This document shows positions 1,291 through 38,659 of a DNA stretch of 64,000 nucleotides, piece after piece. Under the pieces are notes generated by a model that saw nothing but the letters and a program-made list of their open reading frames with translations, was not told the DNA's origin and did not search any database. The translations under genes were made by a program, and so were the position numbers. Position 1 is the first letter of the stretch. Every line of letters starts with the position of its first letter. Where the stretch lies: contig CM000429.1 in NCBI GenBank assembly GCA_000165345.1, forward strand, positions 416,001 to 480,000. The letters are read 5' to 3'.

Positions 1291-1316
1291 TGTTACAATT
1301 GCTCTTTCTGACGAAT

Positions 1317-3089: not shown

Positions 3090-3455
3090 ATGGTTGAAAG
3101 CAGTGACTTCCCACAGATATTAGACCAATTCCCTTTATATGAACATGAAGGAACGAAGACGAAAATTATTGGATTAATATTTTCAAACAAAATTCAATTT
3201 GTCTTGAGCGAAGCGGAAACCTTCGGATCAGTCTTACATGCATCTACAGATCAAGCAGGTATGATTTACGACGTCGAAGTTCTTTTAGGTGATAGAAACG
3301 ATGAGATATCACGGTTATATGCAAGGAGATTACTGGAGCTATTTCGAAGTAAGGGGTATACTAAAAGTAGCCTATTGTTGCTCACTTCTATTAGAAAGCA
3401 CTCTATTGAACATTTGAGAGGCGTTTTAAAGCATATTGATGACAATATCATTTAG
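3090..3455 (+). CDS. Proteasome assembly chaperone 3 (PAC3/PSMG3/Pba3)-like small protein, 121 aa.
   Basis: The segment DVEVLLGDRNDEISRLYARRLLELFRSKGYTKSSLLLLTSIRKHSIEHLRGVLKHI parallels the PSMG3 core (KVLLGQDEPLIHVFAKNLVAFVSQEAGNRAVLLAVAVKDKSMEGLKALREVI). The size also matches the ~122-aa PSMG3. Confidence 0.45.
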   Translation: MVESSDFPQILDQFPLYEHEGTKTKIIGLIFSNKIQFVLSEAETFGSVLHASTDQAGMIYDVEVLLGDRNDEISRLYARRLLELFRSKGYTKSSLLLLTSIRKHSIEHLRGVLKHIDDNII

Positions 3456-19506: not shown

Positions 19507-20240
19507 ATGTGCGAAACAACGTTCATTGGGAGAGCTAGCGATGGCCTAATTCTTACTGAGACTTGGGATGATTTAAGCTCCAACAGATCTCTGCAGAGTT
19601 ATAAGCACCAAGCTAAACAAATATTAAAAAGCATCGGGAATGATCAAGGAGTAGAAAAATGTTCTATTGATAGTGGAAATTATGTCTTCCACTACATTGT
19701 AAATGATGGTATTATTTATATGACTTTATCGGGAAAGTCATACCCGAAGAAGTTGGCTTTTTCTTTTCTAGATGAAATAAAAAGGTTATTTATTGAAGAA
19801 CTAGGGAGAGAATTTGCAAATAGAGATGAATTCAAGAGCCTGATTGATGCAATAGATAAGCCGTATTATTTCATAAAGTTTGACCGAATAATTCAACGAT
19901 GCAAATCCGAATATAAGGACCCAAACTCGAACAAGTCGCTACAAAAACTAAATGACTCGCTAATTGAGGTATGTTTACTACTTGTTTTTAACCATAATGC
20001 TCAAAAAAATTAACAATTCAGGTAACTAATATAATGAGAAGAAATGTGGATGATATTTTACTGAGAGGTGAAAATCTTAATGATGTTGAAAGAAAAGCCA
20101 ATGATTTAAAATTTGCATCCCTGGAATTTTCTAGAGCTGCAAAAAAGCTTTCATTGCATGCATTAATTCAAAAATATGCACCAATATTGGCCTTATCGGC
20201 TATAGTTTTGATCATCATTATATGGAAGCTTATTTTATAA
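19507..20240 (+). CDS. SEC22: R-SNARE Sec22 (longin domain, SNARE motif and TM anchor). It has 2 exons, 19507..19968 and 20022..20240, separated by a 53-nt intron.
   Basis: Exon 1 is the longin fold (MCETTFIGRASDGLILTETWDD...YKHQAKQILKSI...NYVFHYIVNDGIIYMTLSGKSYPKKLAFSFLDEI). It ends at GAG|GTATGT (19969). The acceptor is TTCAG (AG 20020-20021). Exon 2 reads VTNIMRRNVDDILLRGENLNDVERKANDLKFASLEFSRAAKKL followed by the TM helix YAPILALSAIVLIIIIW. The spliced frame is continuous. Confidence 0.75.
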
Positions 20241-20433: not shown

Positions 20434-21147
20434 ATGAATTTTATCGTATCCCCAACAGAACAAGAGCTTTACAGCGAGTTAAGTTCTAAATATCCGAGCC
20501 TGCACATTTGCACTCAAACACCACAACTAAAAGGAGTTATGACAATACTTAGAGATGCAAACACTTCAAAAGAAGACTTTGTGTTTTACACAGATAGAAT
20601 ATGTAGAATTGTTCTTGAACATGCTTTAAACCTTCTTCCTTATGATTATAAGGAAATTAAAACCCCAAATGGAATCGAAGTCAAGGGAATTGCATTTAAC
20701 ACTCCCATCTGCGGCGTGAGCCTAATAGGATCTGGTGAAGCGATGGAGAATGCGCTTAGATTTGTATGCAGAGGATGTAGAATAGGGAAGGTGTTATTAA
20801 ATAACTCTTCTGAAAACGAATTTGACAACGCTATTTCTGCAGCATATGTAAAATTACCCGAAGATGTCTCAGAAAGAGTTGTAATCGTAATGAGCCCAGT
20901 GTTAGGAACTGGTAATTCACTATGTTGTTTGATAGAAGTGCTGATAAAGAACAATGTAAAAGAGAAAAATATTATTTGTATGGCACTGCTTTCGTCAAAA
21001 TTAGCAATCGAACGAGTTTTCTCACAATTTCCAGAAATCAGACTTGTAATCTCCTCAATAGATTATAATCTTGATGAAAACATGCAGGTTGTTCCTGGAG
21101 TTGGTAACTTTGGCGATAGATACTTTGGAATTAAATGTAGCAAATAA
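20434..21147 (+). CDS. UPRT: Uracil phosphoribosyltransferase (UPRT) family protein, 237 aa. The PRPP-binding acidic motif is atypical.
   Basis: The ORF is colinear with UPRT: LRDANTSKEDFVFYTDRI, IGSGEAMENALRF (RAGxxM), VVIVMSPVLGTGNS (PRPP loop) and a C-terminal VVPGVGNFGDRYFG (PGLGDAGDRxFG). Ser154 (20893..20895) sits where the conserved Asp of the DPMLATGGS loop is expected. Confidence 0.8.
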   Translation: MNFIVSPTEQELYSELSSKYPSLHICTQTPQLKGVMTILRDANTSKEDFVFYTDRICRIVLEHALNLLPYDYKEIKTPNGIEVKGIAFNTPICGVSLIGSGEAMENALRFVCRGCRIGKVLLNNSSENEFDNAISAAYVKLPEDVSERVVIVMSPVLGTGNSLCCLIEVLIKNNVKEKNIICMALLSSKLAIERVFSQFPEIRLVISSIDYNLDENMQVVPGVGNFGDRYFGIKCSK

Positions 21148-21314: not shown

Positions 21315-22310
21315 ATGAATTTAATAAATAAACTTTACCGAATATATAAGAGAGAAAAAAAGGAGGACTTAAGAATAAGTGACAAAGAAGAGCCATTAAT
21401 AATATCAAAAACAAGAATGGCACTATTAGAACTAGAAATTAAAACTTTAGCTTACATTCTTTCTAGAGAATTAAAAACGAGTTCTCAAATTTCTAATCTA
21501 TCCGAAATCAAATGGGCAGAAATTACCACTGATGACTTGGATAGACTTGAATCCATCTTGTTTGAAAATGTCTACGAAATAGAAATTAACCCGATAGTTA
21601 AGTCATTAATCTCTATTTTGAGAGGACTATTAGATACACGTAACAAGTTTTTTAATGGCAAAGCGATGCCGTTCTATGTAAAATTAAAGAATGAGAATGT
21701 TCAAAGTACATTTATTTTAGAAGAAAGCGTTAATTTTCCATTTAGAAACGATAGATTAATCAAACAATGTGAAAATATAAACTCTAGTAATGCTACTCCA
21801 AAATCATATTTCTCTTCAAGAACCCCAAGAAACCTTCCAGACTTTAATCAAAAGGTAGAATTGCCAATTAAAAGTAGGTCGAACCATATAAATTTAATTT
21901 CTTCAACTCCAAGAAGTACTTCGTGTCAAACACCTAGGACAAAGAATCACATGAAACATACGAATTTAGATTATTCTACACCAAAATCCGAAATAAATAA
22001 AAAAAATTATTATATTTTTAGTGATTCAAATACCCCAAGAAGAAGCTCAAAAACTGGAATTTGTGGCAATTCGAAAATATCTAACAACCAGCAAGGAAGT
22101 ATAATGGCAGCAAAAGCGCTGCTTGGGTTAAGTGTTAATATACCTGCAACTGAGCAAGATATTAGAAAGGCATATTTGAAGGCAGCAATGAAGTGGCATC
22201 CTGATAAGATGAACTCAAGTACAAATGGGAAATCGCATATTTGTTTTACTGCAATTCAAAACGCAATGGAAATATTATTGCAAAATATTTCCAAAAATGG
22301 AGAGGTTTAA
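21315..22310 (+). CDS. DnaJ (J-domain) protein, 331 aa. The J domain is C-terminal, and the N-terminal two-thirds are S/T/P/N-rich.
   Basis: AKALLGLSVNIPATEQDIRKAYLKAAMKWHPDKMNSSTNGKSHICFTAIQNAMEILL gives the helix II-HPD-helix III signature of J domains. Confidence 0.7.
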   Translation: MNLINKLYRIYKREKKEDLRISDKEEPLIISKTRMALLELEIKTLAYILSRELKTSSQISNLSEIKWAEITTDDLDRLESILFENVYEIEINPIVKSLISILRGLLDTRNKFFNGKAMPFYVKLKNENVQSTFILEESVNFPFRNDRLIKQCENINSSNATPKSYFSSRTPRNLPDFNQKVELPIKSRSNHINLISSTPRSTSCQTPRTKNHMKHTNLDYSTPKSEINKKNYYIFSDSNTPRRSSKTGICGNSKISNNQQGSIMAAKALLGLSVNIPATEQDIRKAYLKAAMKWHPDKMNSSTNGKSHICFTAIQNAMEILLQNISKNGEV

Positions 22311-22387: not shown

Positions 22388-22414
22388 GGCGGGAATTTTC
22401 AAATTTGTCCCCGC
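22388..22414. promoter_or_regulatory. E2F-like GGCGGGAA box with a partial inverted copy (TCCCCGC), about 90 bp upstream of the giant HECT ligase ATG.
   Basis: GTGGCGGGAATTTTCAAATTTGTCCCCGCAT spans the two boxes. GGCGGGAA is at 22388..22395 and TCCCCGC at 22408..22414, in a sequence that is otherwise about 30% GC. Confidence 0.4.
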
Positions 22415-22482
22415 ATTACATAATTGCATGTAATAACTGTCCATATGGAAGACTTAGATTAAAAAGATTTATTTAATTTCAG

Positions 22483-25400
22483 ATGGGAAATAATATTGAT
22501 TTAATTACTTATGAACAATCAAATTATGAAGTTAATGAGTTAGATAAGCTGTATTTGCAACTAGGAAATTATATTGGAAGAAAGGATGAAAATATTTATA
22601 TAAGAGAATTATTAAAGTACTTCTTACAAAATTATTATGACTTAAATCCTAATATAATTGAAGATTGGTGGAAGAGGCGCGAACAGCTATTCCTGAGTGT
22701 TGATGAACTAATTTGGAGTAACCCAAAAATGTTTGATGATTCACTTTGTGAACTAAATTTTGCAACTGAAGAAATGAAAACTTTGACAATGACGTCAAAT
22801 ACGAAAAATAAAATTTCCAAATACTTAGAAAAATTAAATTGTATTATTAATGATGAATTTTCAATTGTAGGCAGTTTTAATTGGGAAGAATATATTGGTA
22901 TTAGATTACAATGTTATGTTAACTTGATGATTACATTGAGAAGGCTTCAACTGAAATTATTGGATTATGATAAAAATAATTATTTTGGACTAAATAAACT
23001 ACTATTTAAGACCAATCAATCCAGTGAAGATATTTTTTTTCTTATAAATAAGGTTTTTAATGAAAATTTTGTAAATTTGGAAACTTATACAAAAATTAAT
23101 CAAGTATTTTTGAAACAAAAATTAACAAATAACTTTAAACGGGAAAAATTAAATTTTATACCTGAAGATGAAATTTTGAACCATTTTATGAATTTTACAA
23201 TTCCTAAATCATTAGATGAAATATATAAAAAAAATACTTCAAGTTCCGAAATTGTACTTCTCGTTAGATGTGTTCTTGGATATATTTGGAGCTATTATAA
23301 AGTCATTTTTTTATCAAATGAGTCAGTTCAGAACCAAATTTTTCTTAATGTTGACAATTTATTTCCAAAGGAAATAATTACAGGTACTACAGATAAAAAC
23401 GCTATGTTATGTTTAAGTGAAGTAATAAAAACGCTGTTAATAAATATAATATTCAACTCAATGATTAGTGAATCCAACGAAAACTTGTGTTTACTAGAAG
23501 ATTTAATTAAACTAGTCCTACAGCTTGGAAACAATATTTTATTATCAGTTTGTGAAAATAAAAGCTCAATGAACAAATGCTTTGTTTTTGGAAGTAATAA
23601 AGTAACCAATTCTGATCTCGAAAACAAAAGCTTATTAATGAAAATGCTTGAGAACATGTTTTCTGAAGATGGATTTTTTGTTAGTATAGTTAAAATTTGT
23701 TTGATCGCTATTTCAATATTAACCACAGGAGTTAATCATTTTCTAGCAAAAAATGGGCAGAAAGAGTCAAATGCTAATCAAAACTTAAGTGAAAATTACA
23801 AAAACAATGTAAAAAATTCGCAAAAGTGTAGCTATTTCTCAAATGATATATGTATTATTACAATAATTATGAGATTGGTCAGTGAATGCAAATATTTAAT
23901 GCAACGATTGTGGAATTTATATATGTTTCTATCAAATGAAGTGAATTGTTGCAATTCACCTGATTTAATTAAGGAAGAAATATATTGTTACGGGCCCATG
24001 CAATTTCATTCTTCTCCAAGAAATACCTTTATTGTTGAATTCCATGAAAAACATTCAATCGGCACTATTAATGATTCGCAAAATAAATTAAATAAGAAAT
24101 TTGAATTGGAAGTTCTGGAAAAACATAAATATTATTGGAAGCTTATACGGGTTCAAAATGCTTCTCATATAATTATATTATTTGATAGCAACTGCTCTAC
24201 AGAAAAGAATACGGATATTTTAGAAATTTTTTGGTCACGGGAAAATTATTCAAGTGATAGAATCAATAAAAATTTTAATGATTTAAGATCTCAATATAAT
24301 GAATCTTTATTTGGAAAGCTTTCTGGACCTAAACACTTGTGGCCAAAAAAGCCTACTATTTATGAAGGAAATACGCTATTAGTTGTTTTTCGCACGTCAA
24401 TTGAATCTTTAGATCAAATTAGTGATGATAAGTGGGGATTCAGAATTTATTTCCAATGCCATTATTGGGATCAAGTGATTGAAAATAAAATAAGCCATAA
24501 AATATCTGATAATAAAACAGAATTCAAGCATAGAGAAATATTGCTATATAATCTAAAAGAAGTATTTATTTTTTCTGCTGTTGCTGTTTCATCAAGCTTA
24601 AGTTTTATGTTACGTGGTCCAAACATTAAAAGAATCGAAAGAAACTTCAACGAAATTTTGGATTCTCTACTTTTTGCTGGTGGGTTAGATATAAATTATG
24701 AAAAAGAGTTTCCACATTTTTCCAACTTGAAAAAAAGTGATTTAGTACCTTTTAATACGGGAAATAAAAATTTGGTTACTTTTGCTGACTTCAATTCTCA
24801 TTCAATGGCACTGATCGATTCTAAAAATAGTATGCATGGTTCTTTGCTGAAAAATGGAATAACTCTAGACAAAAAAGTTAATAATGATCTATTTTACAGA
24901 TTTTTACCTAATATTGATGAAATTAAAGACCAAATTATTAATAATTTGCACTGGGGATTCATAGTTAACTTTGTTTTAAGTCTTTCATCTATTATCCACT
25001 ACAATGCAAAAAAAAATCATTTTAATTTATCAATTGAATTAATGAATGACAAAACATTTATGAAAATTGTAAAAAATGATTCAATAACTGCAAGATTTGG
25101 CAGCGAAAAACTTTCAATGGTGGTTAGATCTTATATATCCTGTTATTTGCATCATCTGGGACTTTATTACAATATTTTTCAGCTATGTGAGAGCCTATTT
25201 AATTTTGGTCTTGGTCTAGAGAGAATAATTCAATTGGCTTGGGAATTTTATTCAAATAATAACTTAGAACACATTTATAACGATTTTTTATTTGAATTTA
25301 TAATAAAATTCATACTAAAACAAGAATCTTGCCAACCTCTTTTAAATGTTTGGACACTGGGAAGAAAATTTAGATCTTGGATAATTATGGAAAAACATAA

Positions 25401-28400
25401 AATTGAGATTAATCAGCCAGAAGAAAAAATAATATACGAATCTAGAAACAGTATTGAAACAGATTTTGACGGTTTACTTAAATCTATTATTTGTAATACA
25501 TCTTTAATTCTAAATTTGGTACCTTTTTCTGGAAGTAAGCATGCTTCAATTTACTCTAAAAATGATTTAAATAGGAGCGAAAACTTTATGGATAATCTTT
25601 ACGAAGATGCATCTAATAATTATGATATTGGTGGATCCAAATATGTATTTTATCCAAATAGAAATATATGTTTGGTTTTAGAATCGATAATTGGTTTTAA
25701 TAAGTATGAGTTATTATTGAATAAATGCTATACAGAAAAATCAAAATCGTTAGTGAATTTTGAAAGTAATAAAGATTCAGTTATTGATACCAAATCAAGT
25801 TTCTTAGATTATAATGAATTGGAAAAATTAAATAACAGTCAAGTAATCAGAGAAATCTGTGATGGAATTGAAAATTTAATTAAATCAGCAAACTACTTTG
25901 GAAAAATGAAATATAATGAATCTGAAGAAAGCTTTTTTGGAATGGATACCGTCCTTTGCATTAGGAGATTTCGTGCAATTTCACGCTTTGAAGCATTTAG
26001 AATACTCTCTACTTTGTTTAACGATGAGAATATTAATGAATTTCTTCTCACCTCATTAATTAAAAGCATAAGATCCATGGGTGAGGAGACACTATGTTTT
26101 TCACCAATAAATAATTACAACGAAACTGGAATATTGGAGTCTCATACGCATAATTATCTTTATTTCTCAAGTGAATATTATAAAAAAGATGAAAATCATC
26201 GTACTTTGGAAGTTCATTACTCAGATAACTTGGTTGGATGCGGCAAAAAAGTACAGAAACAGGTTAAGGATGCGTATTTTAAATTGTTACATTCATTAAT
26301 AAATGGTAAAGCAGTAGCTTCAAAAGGAGCTGAGATTTTAAAAATGAGTTTGTTCGCTTATTTTGCATTGAAAAAGGCCGAGAGTTATGATTTTTTAAAA
26401 ACTGGCTTTCCTGATAGAATTCTATACTTAATGACTGGTTGTAACAAGAGCTGTGAATTAGGAAATGAATGCATACCATCAGTTTCACTTGGCCCCTATC
26501 CAGTATTCCTGGTCTATTCAATTATATGTTTAAAATGTTCCCTGCAAGAAAACTCAGCAATTAAGCTATCTTTAATATTTTCTTCATTTGTAGGGCTTTC
26601 TCACTCCATTTCAATATCTGGTGAATTTAAAGGGCAATTGACGTCAAGAGAACTTTGGAGAATTAGCGAGATTTACTTCATGGGAAAAATATTAATTCTC
26701 ACATCAAAAATGACCAATTTTTTGAAAAAAATTGAAATTTCAAAAACAGAACAAAAAATATATTTGGAATATTTTAAATATATTTTTAATAGAAGACATA
26801 ATATTAACTCTTCAATTAAATCTCCCGAATTGATTGATGATTTGTTTGTAAAATTTTTTTATATTAAACCAAGTATTCTTTCTAATATTATTTGCAGAGC
26901 TTTAGATTCAAGTAACCAAATACTACACTTTTACTGTATCAAATTTTTATGGAAATTTCTTCCATTAACTTCGACAAAGGATTTCTTAGAACAATACTCT
27001 CGGAGGTTAATTCCAAATAATTACTTAATAAAGTCTAAAACTCTTGAAAAATTAAACTATATCGATTGCTTTGAAGGCTATTTAGAAAAAATAGGCCAAT
27101 CATTGGTTTTATTTAACAGTTTTGAAGAAGAATCCAAGATTCATCCTCCAGCAGTATTGGTTAATTCTTTAGAAACTGGACTCTTATATTCGTTCAATGA
27201 TCAATTGGGATCTTTATTAGATAATAATAACAGATTTATAAATAATAATGATGACTTTTATAAAAATATAATATTTTTGTTAAGGTTAATTGCATTGTAT
27301 TCAGAAAAGAATGAACAGAAATATAATGAAGTCAGCTTTAAAAAAATAGATCTAGAGCTAATACATATGGGATTTGTCCAATTATTATCCGAACAGATAT
27401 ATAAAATTCCAACTTTGCTTGATTCACTATTAAATCTCGACGAACATTTAAAACTCGAAGAAGTTTATAGATGTATTGGAATGCTTGCTGTAATAATAGA
27501 TGATTATGATTTTGAAACTCATGTTGGAAAACTGATCCATTTTCAAGAAAATCAATTAATTGAAAGTAAGAATGAAATCAGTAAAATGGGGATATTGATT
27601 TCTAATAATCCACTTAAAAAAGAATACTCCATTTTAATTAATGATTTCAAGTCTATTGAAGTAAAGAAATTCTCTTATAACTCTATAAATATATTGAATA
27701 AAACTAATATATCTTTCCCTATGAAATTTATTATTTCTAAATTAAATTTTGATATAATAAAAATAATAACTAGTATATTGAAAATTTCATTTCAATATTT
27801 ATCCAGTTTATCTACAAATATTGATAATTTGGAAAAGTATTTTTCGATAAAAATTATGGAATATGGTGCAACAATTTCAAATTTGGAGAAAAAAAAGCTA
27901 GTTGCTTTACAAATTATTTCGATGAGTTTGAGTTTTATTAATATGTTGATTGACAATGGGTACATTTCTACATTAAACCTCAGCAATGATCGGAATGTAA
28001 ATCAATTAATTGAACTAATAAATGCAATAACTAAGATTGGAATTGTAAATTTGCCGTCTATAAATGAAAAAGATGGAATATCAAGCAATATTTCAATAAT
28101 TTTAAGTAGAAGATTTATTCAACGAACTCTTCAAAAGAATCAATTTTCTAGTTCAGGTTACTACCCAATATTTAAAAAGTCTACTCAAGCGGATTTACTC
28201 AAAAATTCGCCTTATACAAATATTATGCTAACACTTCCAACAAAATGGGAAATTAAGAACCAATGTTTTTATTTTAAAAACAAAAATACAATAATTTTTA
28301 ATATCAATCATCACTTGTTTCAAGATAAAGGAAATTCAACAATGTTTACTGCAAATTGTTATATTCCAACGTTACTTTCCTTTTACTATTTTGAAATTAA

Positions 28401-31400
28401 TTTCTCATTTAGTGATGAAATGCCAAGGCACAACGAACTGAAGACAAATTTTTGTTTTTTGAGTGAATTGGATCTTGCATTCTGTGTTTGTATAGGGTTA
28501 TATAGAGATGGCTGCCAAAAAGGAATTTCGGGTTCATTCGGCAGTTATGCATATAAAAACACAGGAAAACTTGTGCATGGTTGCGATGAGAAAGAATTTA
28601 GTGAACAAAAAGTCGAAAATTTCTGTATTGGAGATACTGTTGGCTGTGGGATTGATTTCACAAATAAAGTTGTATTTTTTACAAAGAATGGTAGGATAAT
28701 TCGTTATCAAAGTAGTCAGTATACTTTTATGCAAGAATCTCTGTGCAAAAAAAAGAGTGATTACCCGAAATTTAACAATGTAATGGGTCATTTCAAGCCT
28801 GCTATTTGGATTGAAAGGTCTAAATATGATTTTGATACAAACAAATATTTGATTGTTAATGCAAATTTTGGTCAAGAATTGTTTAAATATAAATATATTA
28901 ACAAACTCAATTCCAATAACATACTTTCTTTAGAAAATGAAGAATTATCAATTTTCAGAAATAATAGTGAACAATTAACTTTTAATAACTTTCTATGTAA
29001 TAACTATAGTGAATTGAGCAAAGCGGAATTAAATAGAAGAACTTTGGCTTTTGAGTTACATGAAATAATTAATAACGATAATTTTCCATTATCTGTATGT
29101 ATTCATGCATTAGAAAACTGCAAAGATAATTTAGAATTAGCAGCTAATTGGCTATTAGAGAAAAATTTTCAAAATTCAAGTTCAACATCAATACCAAGTG
29201 AATTTCATTTTTCTTCAGATTCAACAAATAGTGGGATAAAAACATGTTCTGATGGAACAAAATGTAATAAAGTAATTTATTCTGAAAAAGAGTATTTAAT
29301 CGACAAATTAATTAGTTCAAAAAACAAAAGCACTGAATATCATTCTAGCAAATATTTTGAGTTAATTAATACTTTTATATTTAATAAGTATAATCAAGAA
29401 TTAAACTTTATCAAAGATAATTACTTTGAAATATCAAAATACTTTCTCATTTTTGGCTCATTTGGAGAAAATCCCCTTCATAGAATTGAGAACTACGTTT
29501 TAACCAATTATTCTCAAAACGTTAATATTCAAAATTATTTATCAGGCGATATTTGGTTTAATTCACAATTTGATTTTCAAGGATATGACAGAAAAAATCT
29601 GCCGAGTGAATTTGTAGAGCAACAAATATCAAATTTAACATTACAACTATTACATAAAAGAAATTCATTTACAGGAGCATCTTTTTCCCAGAAAACAAAA
29701 AAAAACTCTTTCTTACCTGGAACAATAGTTGAAATTGCACAAAATTTTAAATACTGGATATGTGGTGTTGAAGAAAACGATTGTTTTGCTTCAGAAATTA
29801 TCTCAATGAAAAGTATGGGCACTATTATTGATTTAAACAACTCACCCAAATGTAGAATTATTTATTTCTTAAGAAAGCTTTCAAAATTTACAGGGGTTGT
29901 TTGGTCGTGTAGTCAAATTACAAACTCAACATTAGTACAATTTTTTGATTATTACTCGCTTGTTTATTATTTAGTAAATTTACCATCTAATTTTTTAATT
30001 GAAACATCGACTAATATTGGACTTAGCAATGAAAGGGTTACATACAATAAAGGAACAAAGCTTAAGGCATTCCAGGATTACATCGAAAACATTTTTTCAT
30101 CTAACATTCATAACGAAAATGGAAGGACATTTTTTTATGGTAGATTACCACAAGTATTTCACTTATACTTTAAGTTTGAGCTGATTAAATGTATACAATC
30201 AACTAGAGAAGCTATATCAAAGAATTTAAATAAAGTTCATAAGTACTTGTTTGGTCAAAGCAATCATAAGCGTTTAAATTCTCTTGAAAATATTCTCCAA
30301 ATATTTAAATTAGTCTTTGGAAGTAAATGCCCTAAAATTTCTGATTATTTTGTACCCATGTATACGAAGGAAAGATTATTTTCTATATATTATACAAATT
30401 TATTAAATCAAGAAAATATGATTGGCTATACTCGGTTTCTAGAGGAATTTCCAAAGAAAGAGACAATCAAATTTACTGATATTATACTTAGGGAATATAT
30501 TTCAACAATTAAAGCTGGAATTTATTCTGAAATTCCAATTATAAAGATTGAAACTACTCATCCATGTGAATGTTTGATTGACAAAAAATACGATATTTCA
30601 TTTAAGGACTGTGACTATTTTTTTGCGATATTTGATCCGCTTTGCGAAATTAGCTCTGACAATTTGTCGTTTTTTAAAATTACTTTCAATGATTGCTTAG
30701 ACGGGAAAAAAATCACATTATTAAAAGCGACAGGAAGAGGCTTAAGTGGATGTAAACTAGTCATACCAACAAATTTATTTACTATTTACTTGGTAACATC
30801 TTCTCAAAATAACAATAAATATGGTATTAAAGCTTGTTTTATTCCAATGAGATATTCAATAAGCGATTACAAATTAATGGAAAACAAAAATATTCATTTT
30901 TCCTATATATTATTGGATTTAATTCTTAAAAACGTTGGAAATAATATTGATATAACTCATATAAAAAAAATTGTTGAAATATTACTTTTTGTATTGTTTG
31001 AAATACACATTCCCAAACAAATTTACTCATGCAAGCAAATATCCAACAAGAATATCTCATCATTTAGTTCAAAAGAAGAAAAAGTCATTCCGATACAAAA
31101 CTCATTCATTCATATAGTTCAACAATTGATTAATATTTTTATTAAATACCCAGAAGTTATATGTAATATTTCCCAAAAGAGCATTGTTATTTTAGATTAC
31201 TTAAACACATTCTTTAATATTGTTTATCTAATTCAAATGGACCAATTACAAATTGTGACAAACCATGGGAGAAATGTTAATATTAAATATTGCATTATGT
31301 TACAACTGCATTATTTGTTATTTTTTTATAAAAATAATAAAATGGATTTTTTAATAAATAATAAATATTCCCGAGAGTCTAATTTTGGTAAGCTATCAAA

Positions 31401-34400
31401 TTTTACTTTGTCAAAGTTATCTTTAGAGTTACAAATACAACATAATCTTATAGCGGAGTTAAATCTAGCAGTGCATGACTCAAAAATTAAATATTATCAT
31501 AAAAACAAGAATGTTCTATATAATATTCCGGATACAGAAATATATTCTTTAAAAAAATATAATCAAAAAGAAACGGTTTCAAATTTTCTTTTAAATGGAG
31601 ATATTAAAACACACAACTTGATCACTATAGGAAAAAAATCTATTTTTAACTTCTGTAAATGGTATAATATAATTTCAACATCAAATATCTCTATTCAAGC
31701 TTTTATTTCTTCTATAAATTATATATATGCGGAAAAATTTAGAACCGAAAATGAAAATTTCCCAATAAAAAATTTTTATTCCAATAAAGGAAATGACAGT
31801 CATCTATTTGACTTAGAGGAATCTAAAAGTTACTCATATTATTATGAACCCAATACGCCTCTAGTACTTATTGAGAAACTTGGTGAAGTTCAAATATCAA
31901 TTTTAAGCGCAATGATAATCATTCCATTTGAAACAATGAGCTCTAACAATTCAAGTTTATCGATTGACATTTCACAATTTATTAGAGAGTGTTTGGAATT
32001 GATGGATAACAAATTGCTATTACTGCCGAAGAATAGATTACTTTGGCTTAATGACCAAGCTTTAAAAAGTACATTAAGCCAATTTGATCAACCAATTAAA
32101 ATACTGAACAACCCAATTTTAATTGATTATTCTTTAAAGAGGGTTCTTACAGATGAAGTAATTATTTCAAAAAATGTCACTTTTACTTCTAATGATTTGG
32201 TAGTGTTGACAACTTCAACATTAGATGATACTCAGGATAGAGTTAAACTATTATGGGATATATTAATTCATTTAAAAAACAAAGATGACTCAAAATTATT
32301 GTCGAATAATGTAATTACTTGGATGGAAGATTGGGAAGATAAATTTATCTCAACAAAAGTAAAAGATAATGATAGTTTTGATCCTCGAATTTATGTTGAG
32401 TATTTGAATACATATTCGTTTCCAAAAATCAAAAAGAAAGATATATTGGATTCTTCTAAACAGCATGATAAAAAAACAAAATTTAATTCATTACTTGAAT
32501 CTCAACCTATTCAGTTAATGAGAGAATTTTTTGTTAAGTTGTATTCCGAAAGTATTTTTCAAAGAAAATATTGGCCTGTTTTTATAGGCACAATTCCAAT
32601 TTGTGATTTGGAGCCTTCTAACCATTATTCTAGTTCCTCACTAGATTATAATCAGAGACACTCAGAGAATAAATCAATTTGTGATTCCCAATCATTTGTC
32701 TCAAATTTAAGAGAAATGAATGCACCATGCAGTGTTTCATTTTGGCTATTCCCAATCAACCTTGACAAATATCAAGATAAATTTTCAATTTCAAATAATA
32801 AAAAATTTGAAATCTATAAAAATAAAATAAATGGAGACTTTGAAGAGTGCAATTTATTTGAAACAAAAATTTTTGAATATAATAAAGATGGAAAATGGAA
32901 ATTGATTGCATATAGAGGAATCACAGTTTCAACTATTTCATTTTGGATTACAGATATGGGAAACTTAGGTATTATAGTTAATTCACCAAACAAAAATTAT
33001 CCATTAAATCTAATGCTAAATAACAATACTGCTAACAATCATAGTCAAGTTTCAGAGACTCTAACATTTTCGTCGTTTATTCAGAATAAGTCATCAGCTA
33101 TTGAATTCCATACAACAATTATAATATCAAATCGAAAAATTAATTTGGATCAATGGAATCATATTACAGTTACGATTGGTTCTGAAAAAAAAACAGAAAA
33201 TTTTTCTAATTCTAGAATAGATAACAGTTATTCTGTAAAACTTTATATCAATGGTTTGTTTGATGAGTGTAAAAATATTCCAACAGAGAATATTCCCTTG
33301 ATAGGAGGTGATTTACCTTGGATTATTGGTTGTCACAAATATTTAAGAACAGATTCTTTGAATAATTACGTTTCTCAAAGTGCTCAAGATGATTCTTTAA
33401 TAAAAGAAATACCTAATATATTTTTGGGACAGGACATTAGCTCATCTAAGCTTTTAAGGTACTTAGGATCCAATAAAAATTATTTAAAATTGGTAACAGG
33501 GGAACCTTTGTTTGGCCTCGTAGCAAATTTCATTGTAATTCATTTTGAATGGGAAATAGAAAATATTCATGACTATATTAAAAAAACATTTGATGAAATA
33601 TTATTTCAAGACGAATTAGATGAAATGAATAACTCTGAAGATCTATTAAACAACTCAAATCCAAAAATTGCAAGAACATGTTCAAATTCAAAGTTTCGCA
33701 ATTCTTCAAAATACTCTAAAACTCTATTACATGTGTTTTCAAATAATTGGAAGAATAAACCAATTGTTTCTCATTTTAATAATATTTGGCAACAAGAATA
33801 CATCAATATTAAAATTAACTCAAATAAAGAAGTGAAAACAGAAGAAGTAAATAGAGAAAAGGAATTACTAAATATATCGATTCCAAAAATTTTCATGAAT
33901 AATAATATTTTTAATAGAAAAATGCACATTAAATTAGATATAGTCGTATTGGAAAAACTTGAAATTATCAGCTACGAAGAATTGATTAAAAAAAACAGAA
34001 AAACTAAGAGAAGCATGGATAAATGTTCATGCAAAGATTCTCCAATTGACACAATAGTTATTATTGAAAAAAATAACTTTGAAGGCTCCCTATTTGTATT
34101 AAGGTTAAAATACTTAAACAATTTATTTAGTGATTTAGTACTAAATAAACTGAAAAAAGAATTGGATGCTATATTTGAGAGAGAAGTTAGAACTCCCAAT
34201 AATGATTCATTTTCGAATAATGTGAATCATAATCTAAATATTTTGCATGATACGTACTCTAACCATGATATAATTAAAAAATTTGAACATTATTGTAATT
34301 TTAATAGTAAAAATACTAATAATATATTTATTCAAAAGGGAAGTATAGCTGAATATATTGAAAATAAACAAAATACAGAGTTAGAAGAACTAGAAAATAT

Positions 34401-36321
34401 ACAATTTAATGAAATTTCAAGTAAAGAAGTGCATGAAATAATACCTTCAGTTGGTGAATACATTAATTTTTTATTTAATGAAATAAAGTTATCGGAACCA
34501 ATTTTTCCAATACTTAATGATTTAAAACCATCTATATTTGAAGAGAAGGTTGGCTGTCAAAACTGCAAAGTTGTAATTCTTAACTATTTGAATATTTGTA
34601 ATACTATTTTAAAAAGAATTTCGATATTATTTGTCTCCATTTTCAGTTTCATTGAAATAGTATCGCCAAGACCAAGTATTTTCAAGTATTCTTGGTTAAA
34701 AATGACAAGAAGGTATTTGAGTTTATCCTTGAAGGAGGTATTGATTAATTTATGTCTCACAATAACTGAGGATTCAAAAGCTGATGGAAAAGTTAGAGTA
34801 GCCATTAATAGGACAAAATCAATAATAAGAAATAAAGAAATACTATATTTTGATGATCAATTTATATTCGATAGCGTATTTGGCCAACTTTATATTATTC
34901 TGGAAAAAGTGCCCATTTACAGGCTTCGTTGCAAAAAAAGACCTTGGTATGTTATTTATGAGGGCGAAGGTGGAATTGATGCAGGTGGGATATATAGAGA
35001 TTTGTTATCTCACATTTGTCTTGAACTTCAAAGCGATAAATTACCATTATTTGTTGTTTGCCCAAATTCATATGGATACGGAGAAAATCAGTTTTATTTT
35101 GTTCCAAATCCAAGTCTTGGAAAAAAATTTACTTTCAATGACAGTTTTAAAGTTGAAAAAAACACAAATACTAATTTAAAAGATATAAATACCGAAAAAA
35201 AAATTAAATATGGTAATTCTGGAGGCTGCATAAAGTTGATTTACGATTCATTATATACATTCATTGGAAGATTAATGGGAATATCTATCAGAACTCAAAT
35301 TCCATTAAACCTAGATATACCTAATATTATTTGGAAATTAATATTGGGCGAGAGTGTTTCACTAAATGATTTGAAACAAATTGATTGGTATTCTGTTAAA
35401 TTCTATTTAAAGTTAAAACAAATAGAATGTAATTGGAAAAACAGCGATATTAAGGACAAGAGTAGAAAAGGATTAATACTGGAAGAGTTTGATTCACTTC
35501 AATTAAATTGGTCCTGTTTAAATATTAATGGTGAAGTCGTAGAATTAAAACTTGATGGAGAGAAAATACCCGTAAGAATAGATGAGCTCGGAAAATACTG
35601 TAATTTGTTCAAAGAATATAAGCTTGAGAGAGAATTTTTACATGCAACAAATAACATTAGGAAGGGGATTACGGAAATAATTCCTGAAAACATTTTAGAA
35701 TTACAAACTTGTGAAGAACTGGAAAGATTGATTTGCGGAAACCCCTCTTTGGATATCGATGAGTTAAAACAACATACAAAATATACTGGCTATTCTTCAA
35801 ATGACAAAATTATTAATTGGTTTTGGGATGTATTATCGGAATTGACAGTGCTTCAACAACAAATGTTTCTTAGGTTTGTATGGGGAAGAAGCAGACTTCC
35901 AAGCAAAGGAGCTCAGTGGGAGTGCAATATGGAAATAGTCAGAGTTTATGCTTCTGAAAACACAATTCATGGCGGGGGAACTATTGTTGAAAATATTGAT
36001 CGAATACCTAGTTTCTCCAATTTAAATTCAGAAGAGTTTGATTACATAGAAGATGAATTAGAACACGATAATGATCAATTGAACACTGAATTGATCGATC
36101 AAACGTATTTCAGGGAGCAATCAACTTCGAATATCACATCAGGAGATTTATCTGTACATGGAAATAAGGAAGATCATTTACTTCCTACTAGTCATACTTG
36201 TTTTTTCCAATTAGAATTACCCGGATACTCATCTAAAAAAATACTAAAGGAAAAATTATTGTATGCAATTACTGAAGGAGTTGCAATTGACATAGACAAT
36301 GTAGTACTTGATAATAATTAG
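22483..36321 (+). CDS. Giant HECT-type E3 ubiquitin ligase, 4612 aa, encoded as a single uninterrupted exon. It has a long N-terminal helical/low-complexity region, an SPRY domain, a UBA domain and a C-terminal HECT domain.
   Basis: Continuous 13,839-nt ORF. The C-terminus is FLRFVWGRSRLPS...LPTSHTCFFQLELPGYSSKKILKEKLLYAITEG, i.e. the HECT C-lobe with the catalytic Cys in HTCF (codon 36199..36201). Upstream is the N-lobe WYVIYEGEGGIDAGGIYRDLLSHICLELQSD. Confidence 0.9.
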   Translation: MGNNIDLITYEQSNYEVNELDKLYLQLGNYIGRKDENIYIRELLKYFLQNYYDLNPNIIEDWWKRREQLFLSVDELIWSNPKMFDDSLCELNFATEEMKTLTMTSNTKNKISKYLEKLNCIINDEFSIVGSFNWEEYIGIRLQCYVNLMITLRRLQLKLLDYDKNNYFGLNKLLFKTNQSSEDIFFLINKVFNENFVNLETYTKINQVFLKQKLTNNFKREKLNFIPEDEILNHFMNFTIPKSLDEIYKKNTSSSEIVLLVRCVLGYIWSYYKVIFLSNESVQNQIFLNVDNLFPKEIITGTTDKNAMLCLSEVIKTLLINIIFNSMISESNENLCLLEDLIKLVLQLGNNILLSVCENKSSMNKCFVFGSNKVTNSDLENKSLLMKMLENMFSEDGFFVSIVKICLIAISILTTGVNHFLAKNGQKESNANQNLSENYKNNVKNSQKCSYFSNDICIITIIMRLVSECKYLMQRLWNLYMFLSNEVNCCNSPDLIKEEIYCYGPMQFHSSPRNTFIVEFHEKHSIGTINDSQNKLNKKFELEVLEKHKYYWKLIRVQNASHIIILFDSNCSTEKNTDILEIFWSRENYSSDRINKNFNDLRSQYNESLFGKLSGPKHLWPKKPTIYEGNTLLVVFRTSIESLDQISDDKWGFRIYFQCHYWDQVIENKISHKISDNKTEFKHREILLYNLKEVFIFSAVAVSSSLSFMLRGPNIKRIERNFNEILDSLLFAGGLDINYEKEFPHFSNLKKSDLVPFNTGNKNLVTFADFNSHSMALIDSKNSMHGSLLKNGITLDKKVNNDLFYRFLPNIDEIKDQIINNLHWGFIVNFVLSLSSIIHYNAKKNHFNLSIELMNDKTFMKIVKNDSITARFGSEKLSMVVRSYISCYLHHLGLYYNIFQLCESLFNFGLGLERIIQLAWEFYSNNNLEHIYNDFLFEFIIKFILKQESCQPLLNVWTLGRKFRSWIIMEKHKIEINQPEEKIIYESRNSIETDFDGLLKSIICNTSLILNLVPFSGSKHASIYSKNDLNRSENFMDNLYEDASNNYDIGGSKYVFYPNRNICLVLESIIGFNKYELLLNKCYTEKSKSLVNFESNKDSVIDTKSSFLDYNELEKLNNSQVIREICDGIENLIKSANYFGKMKYNESEESFFGMDTVLCIRRFRAISRFEAFRILSTLFNDENINEFLLTSLIKSIRSMGEETLCFSPINNYNETGILESHTHNYLYFSSEYYKKDENHRTLEVHYSDNLVGCGKKVQKQVKDAYFKLLHSLINGKAVASKGAEILKMSLFAYFALKKAESYDFLKTGFPDRILYLMTGCNKSCELGNECIPSVSLGPYPVFLVYSIICLKCSLQENSAIKLSLIFSSFVGLSHSISISGEFKGQLTSRELWRISEIYFMGKILILTSKMTNFLKKIEISKTEQKIYLEYFKYIFNRRHNINSSIKSPELIDDLFVKFFYIKPSILSNIICRALDSSNQILHFYCIKFLWKFLPLTSTKDFLEQYSRRLIPNNYLIKSKTLEKLNYIDCFEGYLEKIGQSLVLFNSFEEESKIHPPAVLVNSLETGLLYSFNDQLGSLLDNNNRFINNNDDFYKNIIFLLRLIALYSEKNEQKYNEVSFKKIDLELIHMGFVQLLSEQIYKIPTLLDSLLNLDEHLKLEEVYRCIGMLAVIIDDYDFETHVGKLIHFQENQLIESKNEISKMGILISNNPLKKEYSILINDFKSIEVKKFSYNSINILNKTNISFPMKFIISKLNFDIIKIITSILKISFQYLSSLSTNIDNLEKYFSIKIMEYGATISNLEKKKLVALQIISMSLSFINMLIDNGYISTLNLSNDRNVNQLIELINAITKIGIVNLPSINEKDGISSNISIILSRRFIQRTLQKNQFSSSGYYPIFKKSTQADLLKNSPYTNIMLTLPTKWEIKNQCFYFKNKNTIIFNINHHLFQDKGNSTMFTANCYIPTLLSFYYFEINFSFSDEMPRHNELKTNFCFLSELDLAFCVCIGLYRDGCQKGISGSFGSYAYKNTGKLVHGCDEKEFSEQKVENFCIGDTVGCGIDFTNKVVFFTKNGRIIRYQSSQYTFMQESLCKKKSDYPKFNNVMGHFKPAIWIERSKYDFDTNKYLIVNANFGQELFKYKYINKLNSNNILSLENEELSIFRNNSEQLTFNNFLCNNYSELSKAELNRRTLAFELHEIINNDNFPLSVCIHALENCKDNLELAANWLLEKNFQNSSSTSIPSEFHFSSDSTNSGIKTCSDGTKCNKVIYSEKEYLIDKLISSKNKSTEYHSSKYFELINTFIFNKYNQELNFIKDNYFEISKYFLIFGSFGENPLHRIENYVLTNYSQNVNIQNYLSGDIWFNSQFDFQGYDRKNLPSEFVEQQISNLTLQLLHKRNSFTGASFSQKTKKNSFLPGTIVEIAQNFKYWICGVEENDCFASEIISMKSMGTIIDLNNSPKCRIIYFLRKLSKFTGVVWSCSQITNSTLVQFFDYYSLVYYLVNLPSNFLIETSTNIGLSNERVTYNKGTKLKAFQDYIENIFSSNIHNENGRTFFYGRLPQVFHLYFKFELIKCIQSTREAISKNLNKVHKYLFGQSNHKRLNSLENILQIFKLVFGSKCPKISDYFVPMYTKERLFSIYYTNLLNQENMIGYTRFLEEFPKKETIKFTDIILREYISTIKAGIYSEIPIIKIETTHPCECLIDKKYDISFKDCDYFFAIFDPLCEISSDNLSFFKITFNDCLDGKKITLLKATGRGLSGCKLVIPTNLFTIYLVTSSQNNNKYGIKACFIPMRYSISDYKLMENKNIHFSYILLDLILKNVGNNIDITHIKKIVEILLFVLFEIHIPKQIYSCKQISNKNISSFSSKEEKVIPIQNSFIHIVQQLINIFIKYPEVICNISQKSIVILDYLNTFFNIVYLIQMDQLQIVTNHGRNVNIKYCIMLQLHYLLFFYKNNKMDFLINNKYSRESNFGKLSNFTLSKLSLELQIQHNLIAELNLAVHDSKIKYYHKNKNVLYNIPDTEIYSLKKYNQKETVSNFLLNGDIKTHNLITIGKKSIFNFCKWYNIISTSNISIQAFISSINYIYAEKFRTENENFPIKNFYSNKGNDSHLFDLEESKSYSYYYEPNTPLVLIEKLGEVQISILSAMIIIPFETMSSNNSSLSIDISQFIRECLELMDNKLLLLPKNRLLWLNDQALKSTLSQFDQPIKILNNPILIDYSLKRVLTDEVIISKNVTFTSNDLVVLTTSTLDDTQDRVKLLWDILIHLKNKDDSKLLSNNVITWMEDWEDKFISTKVKDNDSFDPRIYVEYLNTYSFPKIKKKDILDSSKQHDKKTKFNSLLESQPIQLMREFFVKLYSESIFQRKYWPVFIGTIPICDLEPSNHYSSSSLDYNQRHSENKSICDSQSFVSNLREMNAPCSVSFWLFPINLDKYQDKFSISNNKKFEIYKNKINGDFEECNLFETKIFEYNKDGKWKLIAYRGITVSTISFWITDMGNLGIIVNSPNKNYPLNLMLNNNTANNHSQVSETLTFSSFIQNKSSAIEFHTTIIISNRKINLDQWNHITVTIGSEKKTENFSNSRIDNSYSVKLYINGLFDECKNIPTENIPLIGGDLPWIIGCHKYLRTDSLNNYVSQSAQDDSLIKEIPNIFLGQDISSSKLLRYLGSNKNYLKLVTGEPLFGLVANFIVIHFEWEIENIHDYIKKTFDEILFQDELDEMNNSEDLLNNSNPKIARTCSNSKFRNSSKYSKTLLHVFSNNWKNKPIVSHFNNIWQQEYINIKINSNKEVKTEEVNREKELLNISIPKIFMNNNIFNRKMHIKLDIVVLEKLEIISYEELIKKNRKTKRSMDKCSCKDSPIDTIVIIEKNNFEGSLFVLRLKYLNNLFSDLVLNKLKKELDAIFEREVRTPNNDSFSNNVNHNLNILHDTYSNHDIIKKFEHYCNFNSKNTNNIFIQKGSIAEYIENKQNTELEELENIQFNEISSKEVHEIIPSVGEYINFLFNEIKLSEPIFPILNDLKPSIFEEKVGCQNCKVVILNYLNICNTILKRISILFVSIFSFIEIVSPRPSIFKYSWLKMTRRYLSLSLKEVLINLCLTITEDSKADGKVRVAINRTKSIIRNKEILYFDDQFIFDSVFGQLYIILEKVPIYRLRCKKRPWYVIYEGEGGIDAGGIYRDLLSHICLELQSDKLPLFVVCPNSYGYGENQFYFVPNPSLGKKFTFNDSFKVEKNTNTNLKDINTEKKIKYGNSGGCIKLIYDSLYTFIGRLMGISIRTQIPLNLDIPNIIWKLILGESVSLNDLKQIDWYSVKFYLKLKQIECNWKNSDIKDKSRKGLILEEFDSLQLNWSCLNINGEVVELKLDGEKIPVRIDELGKYCNLFKEYKLEREFLHATNNIRKGITEIIPENILELQTCEELERLICGNPSLDIDELKQHTKYTGYSSNDKIINWFWDVLSELTVLQQQMFLRFVWGRSRLPSKGAQWECNMEIVRVYASENTIHGGGTIVENIDRIPSFSNLNSEEFDYIEDELEHDNDQLNTELIDQTYFREQSTSNITSGDLSVHGNKEDHLLPTSHTCFFQLELPGYSSKKILKEKLLYAITEGVAIDIDNVVLDNN
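28340..28890 (+). other. SPRY (B30.2-like) domain within the giant HECT ligase, about aa 1954-2136.
   Basis: ...GLYRDGCQKGISGSFGSYAYKNTGKLVHGCDEKEFSEQKVENFCIGDTVGCGIDFTNKVVFFTKNGRII... matches the SPRY C-terminal consensus (GDVIGCxxDxxxxxxxFxKNG). Confidence 0.65.
29015..29175 (+). other. UBA (ubiquitin-associated) domain within the giant HECT ligase, about aa 2178-2231.
   Basis: ELNRRTLAFELHEIINNDNFPLSVCIHALENCKDNLELAANWLLEKNF gives the three-helix UBA pattern with conserved hydrophobics and a G/N turn, ending in an xxWLLE helix. Confidence 0.5.
34840..36318 (+). other. HECT catalytic domain (N-lobe with inserts, and C-lobe) of the giant ligase.
   Basis: See the parent CDS. The active-site Cys codon TGT is at 36199..36201. 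The four residues after it are SKKI...; the protein ends ...AIDIDNVVLDNN. Confidence 0.85.
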
Positions 36322-36502
36322 GAGTAATATTGGTTACATAACTTACTTAAATATATTCAATTTTTTGAACAATTATTTAGCGCTACAATTTCTTTAATAT
36401 TTATTTTCAAATTGTATAACTGAATAATTGAGTTAATGAATTAATGGAAATAAACAAAGATTTGGAAGAGGAATAAGGAAATTGAAATCAAACTTAAATA
36501 TT

Positions 36503-38030
36503 ATGAATTCATTAGTACAAAACTCTCCTTTTTCATCAATGATGAACTTTACTTTTTTTGACCAAGCAAAAAAGATATTACAATCAGAAGAATCTAATAA
36601 ATTAGAAAAGTATAAAATTTGGAAGGAAAACACATCATTACTCTATGAAAATATAATGACTCATATTTTGGAGTGGCCATCACTATCAGTACAGTGGATG
36701 TGTGAAAGTAGTATTTCTGATGTTGAAAGCTTTTACTCTGATGAAGGTATAAACGAAACATCAAAGTATTCTTTGTTAACAGGCACCCATACATCAGGAA
36801 TGGACCAAGATTATATTATTATATTGGATGTTTTATTACCAAATTGCCCCATTCCAGAAAATTGTAGGAAATTCGATTCTCATAGCGATTATGCTGGCTT
36901 TACAATACCACATATGGAAGCTGACTCAAATAATTTTAGTCAAAGAATCCTAATTCCACACGATGGAGAAGTAAATCGAGTTGTTAGTTCTCCCATGAAT
37001 AGGAACATTATTGCATCCAAAACTGTGGTGGGCAATGTTAATATTTACGATTTAAATAGCTTAGTGGACGAAAAAATGGTTAAAGGAACTGTTAAAACTG
37101 AAAATAATCCATCATTAATTTTATGCGGTCATGAGTTAGAAGGTTGGGCTTTAAGTTGGAATAAAATTAAAGAGTCCTATTTGGCAAGCGGTTCGGATGA
37201 TAATGTTATTTGCTTATGGGATATTCAAAGTAAACCAAATAATTATGAAAGGAAATTAAAACCGATTCTTAAATTCATGGGGCATGAAAAAAGCGTTCAA
37301 GATATCTCATGGAATCCTTCAAATGAGAATATTATGATTTCAGTTGGAGATGATGGGTTAATAATGATTTGGGATATTCGTGAATCAGCCTCACCATGCT
37401 GCACTATAAAAACGTTAAAAGAACATTGTTCTGACAATACAAAAATTAACTTTAATTTTAAAAAGTCGGTTGGATATTCTTGTATTGGCCATTGTAGTAC
37501 AAATATTAATAGCCTTAACACAATTGAATTCAATCCATTTCAAACAAACATTATTGCTGTTGGAGGGAGCGACCCCGTGATAGCGATATTTGATATTAGA
37601 AACATGAGCAAACGACTTCACTCACTTAACGGGCATTCTGGACAAATAAATCGTTTAAGTTTCCTCTTAGAAAATGAGTCATTATTGGCATCTGCGTCTT
37701 CAGACTCTACAGTTTCGGTAAGTTTAATTTAAGATTAAATTTATAGACCTAATTACGATAAACTTTCAGATTTGGGATTTATCAAAAATTGGAATGGAAC
37801 AAAGACCTGATGAAGTTGAAGATGGTGTACCGGAGCTAATTTTTACTCATAGTGGGCATACTTCTCCAGTAATAGATTTGTCTTGCATGACTAACTATTT
37901 ACAGACGACTACATTTGCAAGTATAAGCGAAAACAATTATTTGCATATTTGGAGCCCAGGAGAAGCTATGTTTCTTTCAGATGATGAAGATGAAGAACTT
38001 GAAAGGATAAAAGATATCCAAGTTGAATAA
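36503..38030 (+). CDS. MSI1: Histone-binding WD40 protein RbAp46/48 (MSI1/RBBP4; a subunit of CAF-1, NuRD and PRC2). It has 2 exons, 36503..37717 and 37770..38030. The track ORF starts at an in-frame TTG at 36482.
   Basis: The N-terminus reads EKYKIWKENTSLLYENIMTHILEWPSLSVQWMCE, matching RBBP4 ([34 protein letters not shown]). Exon 1 ends TVS|GTAAGT (donor 37718). The acceptor is TTTCAG (AG 37768-37769). Exon 2 reads IWDLSKIGMEQRPDEVEDGVPELIFTHSGHTSPVIDLSCMTNY..., matching RBBP4 ([44 protein letters not shown]). Confidence 0.85.
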
Positions 38031-38101: not shown

Positions 38102-38659
38102 ATGGAGTACACGAATAGAAAGCTTTACGGAGGAGCAATAACATTAAATATCCCAAAGGAATTTGATGATATCAGTAATGTGAGAGATGTTCCTGATCAT
38201 CAAGAGGTTTTTGTTGATGGGTTTTCAGAAAGTAGTATAATTGTTGAAATTTTGGATCCTATTGATTTTGCTGGATGCAGGAACGTCGCAGAATATTATT
38301 TTATGGATATTTCTGAATTCAACAGTTCATTAGATACGAGAATAATATATTCTGAACCACTGTCTACGTATTCCAATGATTTAGAAATTTCCAAATGTTT
38401 TGGTAATCAGAAATTAGATAAGAGATATCCAGATGGAATTCGAAGAGAAGAATTAGAATTATATTTGCTAGTATTGAGAGTTGTCTCAAAGAAGGCTGAC
38501 ATTGTTATATCTTTCAACAATCCAACGGGATGTGCAGCTGTCAAAAAATCTTTGCATACAAACACCGACGATAGAAGACATACAGAAAAGGAAATAAGAG
38601 AAATTATGGACGAGATATTAAGGAGCTTCATAATAAAAGATTATAATCTATTCTTATAG
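38102..38659 (+). CDS. MOG1: Ran-binding protein Mog1 (RANGRF), 185 aa.
   Basis: RKLYGGAITLNIPKEFDDISNVRDVPDHQEVFVDGFSESSIIVEILD matches Mog1 ([46 protein letters not shown]). Confidence 0.65.
   Translation: MEYTNRKLYGGAITLNIPKEFDDISNVRDVPDHQEVFVDGFSESSIIVEILDPIDFAGCRNVAEYYFMDISEFNSSLDTRIIYSEPLSTYSNDLEISKCFGNQKLDKRYPDGIRREELELYLLVLRVVSKKADIVISFNNPTGCAAVKKSLHTNTDDRRHTEKEIREIMDEILRSFIIKDYNLFL

Follow-up and report, generated by a model that had tools for sequence, protein, structure and literature searches.

The stretch analysed here (the window) comprises 64,000 nucleotides of the forward strand of contig CM000429.1 (positions 416,001 to 480,000, NCBI GenBank assembly GCA_000165345.1), is AT-rich (about 25-37% G+C) and carries densely packed, intron-less open reading frames (ORFs). 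About one fifth of it is occupied by a single ORF at 22483..36321 (+; all features of this gene given below lie on the same strand), which according to the ORF listing runs without interruption from an ATG through 4612 codons to a stop. The encoded protein of 4612 amino acids (aa) has exactly the sequence of the Cryptosporidium parvum Iowa II entry EAK88406.1 (GenBank), which bears the name "Large protein with a SPRY domain and HECT domain"; its SPRY/HECT nature has been annotated since the Iowa II genome and is already known. The ORF is probably cgd1_1920, judged from the chromosome-1 listing of a 2008 survey, in which cgd1_1920 is the sole HECT gene of that chromosome; this one published survey counts only three Cryptosporidium HECT ligases (PMC2408969).

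With a probability of roughly 85%, we read the locus as one intact, intron-less C. parvum gene for a giant, scaffolded HECT-type E3 ubiquitin ligase of class I. The predicted domain order is an N-terminal helical region, a CUB domain, a long helical scaffold, a SPRY-UBA cassette, a small beta block, a second CUB domain with a helical extension, a laminin-G-like (LamG) domain and an extended HECT domain.

At the base composition of the ORF region (26.8% G+C), 0.09 stops are expected per random codon, and because 9% of random codons are stops, a run of 4612 open codons would arise by chance with a probability of about 1e-190; in the other five frames, 226-616 stops were counted. An in-frame stop at 22474-22476, two codons (6 nt) 5' of the ATG, makes the ATG at 22483 the first possible start, and the start codon is further supported by the N-terminal Met-Gly (22483..22488), which is kept in all Cryptosporidium orthologues (MGNNIDL, MGISLGV). 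The same Met-Gly raises the possibility of N-myristoylation; the residues that follow it in C. parvum match the consensus poorly. Upstream, inside the 172-nt intergenic spacer and 88 nt 5' of the start codon, lies GGCGGGAA (22388..22395), which we take to resemble the E2F-like motif that has been described in front of numerous Cryptosporidium genes.

Orthologues are 4614-4615 aa long in C. hominis and C. tyzzeri and 4941-4945 aa in C. andersoni, C. muris and C. serpentis. C. parvum and C. andersoni share 36% identity across all 4612 aa, with above-average values in the UBA (57%, the highest), HECT (51%), LamG (46%) and first CUB (42%) segments; within the genus the sequence is conserved, in a purifying manner, along its whole length. 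The few recognisable features over large stretches of the protein would be in line with several adjacent genes read through as one frame, or with a decaying pseudogene. Against this stand the negligible chance of so long an open frame, the end-to-end conservation of orthologues of 4612-4945 aa across the genus, the recurrence of the same domain order in single proteins of other phyla and the intact catalytic motif, and we consider such an explanation hardly credible. The sequence-only reading, made earlier from the letters of the window, had taken the gene to be real and to consist of a single exon; the uninterrupted, intron-less frame from ATG to stop, its probability by chance and the exact match in GenBank bear this out.

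In the whole protein, the Pfam HECT domain is placed at aa 4227-4599 (E 2.5e-64), and PF00632 scores 218-226 bits in the whole protein and in pieces of it, with a cut-off of 23.9. On the basis of Pfam and of PDB matches to the N-lobe, the extended HECT domain was delimited at aa 4040-4612 (34600..36318); it includes a pre-HECT block (aa 4040-4225), which 148 of the compared sequences retain. The best PDB match of the N-lobe is HECTD3 (5.8e-31; 108.8 bits versus 89.9 for E6AP). The catalytic cysteine, Cys4573, lies 39 residues from the C-terminus in the local sequence LPTSHTC(4573)FFQLELP, where HTCFFQLELP begins at aa 4571, and its codon TGT falls at 36199..36201, exactly where it had been put before; the Ser-His-Thr directly preceding it is invariant in the HECT alignment with relatives. 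Two insertions, both specific to Cryptosporidium, were recognised. The first, in the N-lobe (aa 4213-4249, 35119..35229), appears as a gap between matched stretches and is absent from the aligned relatives. The second, an acidic stretch of about 76 aa in the C-lobe (aa 4490-4565, 35950..36177), precedes the catalytic loop, at a point where relatives pass straight from ...FEI... to LPVSHTCF, and has a predicted local distance difference test (pLDDT) value of about 25 in AlphaFold2 (AF2). The HECT fold signature is intact, with its catalytic cysteine, and formation of the ubiquitin thioester and transfer of ubiquitin are predicted.

The SPRY domain is RanBP9/10-like and spans aa 1920-2136 (28240..28890), with the Pfam SPRY match at aa 2001-2082 (36.7 bits, cut-off 26.3). 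It is followed by a UBA-like three-helix domain (aa 2178-2231, 29014..29175), to which it is fused as a conserved cassette, in which 29 positions are unchanged among the six distant sequences compared. In the whole protein the UBA match (aa 2200-2224) remains at 19.7 bits, below the cut-off of 22.4; scanning a 600-aa piece brings it to 22.6 bits, and scanning the 53-aa segment by itself to 27.3 bits (E 3e-6). UBA or UBA_7 was matched in six of six aligned relatives, AF2 predicts three helices in the segment (pLDDT about 70-78), and its PDB matches are weak and are all UBA or TS-N domains. A search with the SPRY-UBA alignment as query yielded RanBPM-type SPRY proteins and no others. The limits given for the two domains in the sequence-only reading (aa 1954-2136 and 2178-2231) agree with the family alignment, and the Pfam profile search finds SPRY, UBA and HECT where they had been proposed, the UBA rising above its cut-off in the shorter pieces. 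Between the UBA and the second CUB domain, a small unnamed beta-rich block (aa ~2415-2510, 29725..30012) is kept across the family (PG.IV.I ... G.V ... V.F.D ... LP); it was defined by conserved alignment columns, AF2 gives strands at low confidence, and neither the C. parvum pieces nor the relatives yielded a Pfam match for it.

The stretches of about 1900 aa and 2000 aa on either side of the SPRY-UBA cassette, earlier held to contain no nameable motif, proved to contain two CUB domains and the LamG domain. By iterated profiles, a repeated beta-sandwich module was detected at aa 524-665 and 2661-2940, and the two copies cross-match. CUB domain 1 (aa 524-665, 24052..24477) matches protist giant HECTs by phmmer at 2e-6 to 2e-4; CUB domain 2 covers aa 2687-2795 and is extended by a conserved helical stretch that reaches aa 2940 (30541..31302). 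A 28-sequence profile of the module matches the CUB domains of cubilin (9.8e-9), C1r (7e-7) and MASP-2 (1e-4), as well as those of TSG-6, PCPE-1 and Kremen, and 13 of its 28 members individually match Pfam CUB; the alignment of the module, used as a search query, returned four unnamed fragments. Classical extracellular CUB domains have four conserved cysteines that form two disulfides. In the module alignment no conserved cysteine pattern was found; only columns of H, F, D, W and G are invariant or nearly so, and the copies share the motif ExxHPY ... FD ... WG[YF]KF. Since the four-cysteine pattern is absent, we assign the copies to a divergent, intracellular CUB subfamily, and since the protein has no evident signal peptide, they are presumably cytoplasmic.

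The laminin-G/concanavalin-A-like domain has its core at aa 3484-3620 (32932..33342) within a conserved block at aa 3440-3720 and was identified from relatives and by hhalign. In C. parvum alone, Laminin_G_3 scores 13.4-19.1 bits (Pfam cut-off 27.6), and relatives show significant Laminin_G_3 matches at the same relative position (2.4e-9, 7e-16, 1e-5). Aligned against a profile of relatives built without Cryptosporidium, the Cryptosporidium LamG block was matched by hhalign with a probability of 96.8% (E 2.3e-10). Four beta-sandwich modules and one UBA-like bundle are embedded in a long sequence that is predicted to be mostly helical. A zf-RanBP or other CxxC zinc finger was not found in the C. 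parvum protein, either by Pfam or in a search for the pattern CxxC...CxxC.

When HMMER was run exhaustively with the last 1200 aa as query, 9960 HECT proteins were returned, among which the closest, after those of Cryptosporidium and a 1978-aa Toxoplasma protein, are many giant proteins of 3000-7000 aa. When the full query was compared with these giant relatives, matches outside the HECT domain were obtained, and their order never varied. The order CUB, SPRY-UBA, CUB, (CUB), LamG, HECT is found in Amorphochlora amoebiformis (Rhizaria, 3436 aa) and in several uncultured-protist proteins, and Acytostelium subglobosum (Amoebozoa, a dictyostelid, 4434 aa) has CUB, SPRY, CUB, CUB, HECT with a PH domain inserted. 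Aligning a profile of three Cryptosporidium lineages with a profile of three relatives by hhalign gave a single collinear match (E 1.8e-93; query 550-4485, target 1141-4439, 2930 columns). Pfam on the relatives gave SPRY, Laminin_G_3 and HECT in the same order, with an extra zf-RanBP in two; in the two best collinear relatives (Amorphochlora P0031 and P0058), zf-RanBP, SPRY and Laminin_G_3 occur together.

These data bear on the suggestion of the sequence-only reading that the protein is a lineage-specific giant E3, that is, an apicomplexan or Cryptosporidium-only ligase in which SPRY, UBA and HECT were assembled independently. The first 520 aa and most linkers do match Cryptosporidium sequences only, and the closest Toxoplasma protein shares just the LamG-like and HECT parts. 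However, homology is collinear over about 2900 columns with proteins from outside the Apicomplexa, the same ordered modules recur in Rhizaria and the order CUB, SPRY, CUB, HECT in Amoebozoa, the SPRY-UBA cassette keeps its invariant positions in distant sequences, and SPRY-bearing HECTs had already been described as the pan-eukaryotic class I (PMC3673628). The composition and named sources of the relatives speak against the notion that they might be Cryptosporidium-like contaminants. A lineage-specific origin is therefore very improbable, given the collinear homology with giant HECTs of unrelated protists; the architecture is, as far as these comparisons reach, an ancient eukaryotic one and not specific to the parasite.

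Further uncultured-protist giant HECTs (P0138, P0140, P0143, P0108, P0094, P0078) carry four to seven divergent CUB copies, with SPRY near the HECT domain, and about half of the CUB copies in such CUB-rich proteins are not recognised by Pfam. Such proteins suggest that CUB-rich HECT ligases form a wider family. The divergent cytoplasmic CUB subfamily, with up to seven copies in protist giant HECTs, may represent an undescribed substrate-recognition module of HECT enzymes.

From this architecture a mode of action can be proposed. As in known HECT enzymes, E2~ubiquitin would dock on the HECT N-lobe, and ubiquitin would pass to Cys4573 as a thioester and from there to substrate lysines. The helical scaffold of about 4000 residues would position the four beta-sandwich modules (two CUB, SPRY, LamG) in the manner of HUWE1, and the CUB, SPRY and LamG modules could recruit substrates or adaptors. 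The UBA would bind ubiquitin, favouring chain extension or the recognition of already ubiquitinated clients, as is thought for the UBA modules of HUWE1 and UBR5.

Several points weigh against an intact class I ligase organised in this way. In the HECT domain, the 76-aa acidic insertion adjoins the catalytic loop. Well-studied HECTs have an aromatic or hydrophobic residue near the C-terminus ('-4 Phe'); the tail of C. parvum, C. hominis and C. tyzzeri (36283..36318) reads ...DNVVLDNN, with Leu at -4. In other Cryptosporidium species, in Toxoplasma and in two of the protist relatives, a Trp lies 2-6 residues before the C-terminus (NWE, DWDQR, AAWQ, NWDE); the parvum clade has lost the aromatic tail residue. 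At the UBA loop (29077..29091, aa 2199-2203), C. parvum has NDNFP, where relatives have MG[F/Y]P and C. andersoni has GGGLFP, which may weaken ubiquitin binding; with NDNFP in place of MG[F/Y]P, binding is plausible but not assured. Both CUB domains and the LamG domain fall below the Pfam cut-offs in the C. parvum sequence itself, and were called from family profiles and from one medium-confidence AF2 model (aa 1885-2945, mean pLDDT 49.9), which was used domain by domain only; the model of aa 3413-4612, covering LamG to HECT, had a mean pLDDT of 37 and was not used. The helical scaffold is described from predicted secondary structure only. Finally, enzymatic, expression or localisation data for the gene were not found in the literature, where it appears in one survey paper, and literature searches for Cryptosporidium HECT/SPRY and for cgd1_1920 gave no functional or structural description.

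Next to the ligase gene, the HECT region is flanked by two genes of chromatin-assembly-factor type. One, at 12008..14806, encodes a CAF-1 subunit A-like protein with a CAF1A dimerisation domain (E 3e-8); the other, at 36482..37732, encodes a WD40 protein of RBBP4/CAF1C type with a histone H4-binding domain (E 6e-22). For the latter ORF, which is listed from a TTG, a later ATG is probably the actual start. Another E3 ligase gene, located 2.4 kb downstream of the HECT gene at 38724..39965 (-), encodes a RING-H2 finger protein of 413 aa (zf-RING_2, E 4e-13). Other genes of the neighbourhood encode a longin SNARE (19507..20013), UPRTase (20434..21147), Mog1 (38102..38659), Rpc25 (40062..40664, -) and a prenyltransferase beta subunit (42429..43922).

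An ancestral SPRY domain is what defines class I of the HECTs, which is pan-eukaryotic (Grau-Bové 2013, PMC3673628); its members are HERC1, HERC2, KIAA0614 (HECTD4), HECTD3, HECTAm1 (PH and SPRY) and HECTEx1 and HECTHe1 (Laminin_G3 and SPRY) (PMC3673628). With a SPRY domain N-terminal to its HECT domain, assignment of the C. parvum protein to this SPRY-bearing clade is well supported at the level of sequence. It shares with the class I ligases the C-terminal HECT domain, the upstream SPRY, the very large size and the spread across eukaryotes, and its closest solved HECT is that of HECTD3; the zf-RanBP, Laminin_G3 and PH domains of its relatives are those given for KIAA0614, HECTHe1/HECTEx1 and HECTAm1, respectively (PMC3673628). 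CUB domains and a fixed SPRY-UBA cassette are not mentioned in that paper, and Cryptosporidium is absent from its main text. Taken by their descriptions, the families that the protein most resembles are the KIAA0614/HECTD4-type and the SPRY and Laminin_G3-type protist families.

A refinement of our reading of an ancient class I ligase, which does not contradict it, is that the protein and human HECTD4 (KIAA0614/C12orf51) are orthologues. Members of the KIAA0614 family occur throughout eukaryotes, Alveolata and Rhizaria included; SPRY is present in some of them and an extra zf-RanBP in some (PMC3673628). The two best collinear relatives carry both domains, the sizes are alike (4.0-4.6 thousand aa), and HECTD3, the closest solved HECT, is also of class I. 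On the other side, the likeness was drawn from descriptions of the family, the C. parvum protein yielded no zf-RanBP, Laminin_G3 plus SPRY is the signature of HECTHe1 and HECTEx1, and the Acytostelium protein (P0133) carries PH plus SPRY, the motifs listed for HECTAm1 (PMC3673628). We rate this orthology as a serious possibility, somewhat short of even odds. By description, human HECTD4 is likewise a giant (~460 kDa) single-chain HECT E3 with a C-terminal catalytic cysteine; it ubiquitinates in vitro (bioRxiv 10.1101/2025.04.09.647907) and differs in being reported without any recognisable domain besides HECT. No account of function or structure was found in literature searches combining HECTD4 with SPRY, CUB or cryo-EM.

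More broadly, and more tentatively still, the whole family with CUB, SPRY-UBA, CUB, LamG and HECT could represent the HECTD4/KIAA0614 family among protists. If so, the Cryptosporidium gene and its relatives would provide the first domain map for human HECTD4, cryptic CUB, SPRY, UBA and LamG modules would be predicted in it, and the protist sequences would help to annotate a poorly understood, disease-associated ligase. What is gained for the C. parvum protein is a fuller domain map, with its two CUB domains, the SPRY-UBA cassette as a fixed unit, the laminin-G-like domain and the insertions of the HECT lobes. In addition, a "HERC2" gene model of one C. hominis assembly is corrected as a fusion; the understanding of how HECT ligases work is unchanged by these findings.

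That gene model and automated KEGG labels on relatives are what speaks for orthology with HERC1 or HERC2. In the C. hominis record (OLQ16004.1/PPA63419.1, 4874 aa, named HERC2), the upstream DnaJ-domain ORF (21315..22310 in the window) is fused to the HECT gene, and spurious introns have been introduced, one of which removes the equivalent of C. parvum aa 911-947; the fusion looks like an annotation artefact. HERC1 has two RCC1-like domains (RLDs) and WD40 repeats and is animal-specific (PMC3673628), and HERC2 is defined by three RLDs, Cyt-b5, MIB-HERC2, ZZ and DOC. None of these domains was found in the C. parvum protein at E-values up to 10 in overlapping 600-aa pieces, and orthology with either HERC can for practical purposes be set aside.

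Other known systems were compared with the C. parvum ligase. In the CTLH/GID E3 complex, which is of the RING type, RanBP9/RanBP10 and Gid1/Vid30 serve as non-catalytic subunits; none of their LisH, CTLH and CRA domains is present in the C. parvum protein. The extracellular CUB domains of cubilin, C1r/C1s, MASP and Kremen differ from the ligase copies, which are without the conserved four-cysteine pattern and presumably cytoplasmic. HUWE1/Tom1 is also a giant HECT E3 with a helical scaffold and a UBA. HUWE1 belongs to HECT class VI and has no SPRY, CUB or LamG domain, and its defining DUF908, DUF913, WWE and DUF4414 were not detected by Pfam in the whole C. parvum protein or in pieces of it; the earlier statement that the protein is not HUWE1, HERC1 or UBR5 accords with the failure of Pfam to find the defining domains of the first two. 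With its several inward-facing interaction modules, HUWE1 nevertheless provides the best structural precedent for how the C. parvum ligase could work.

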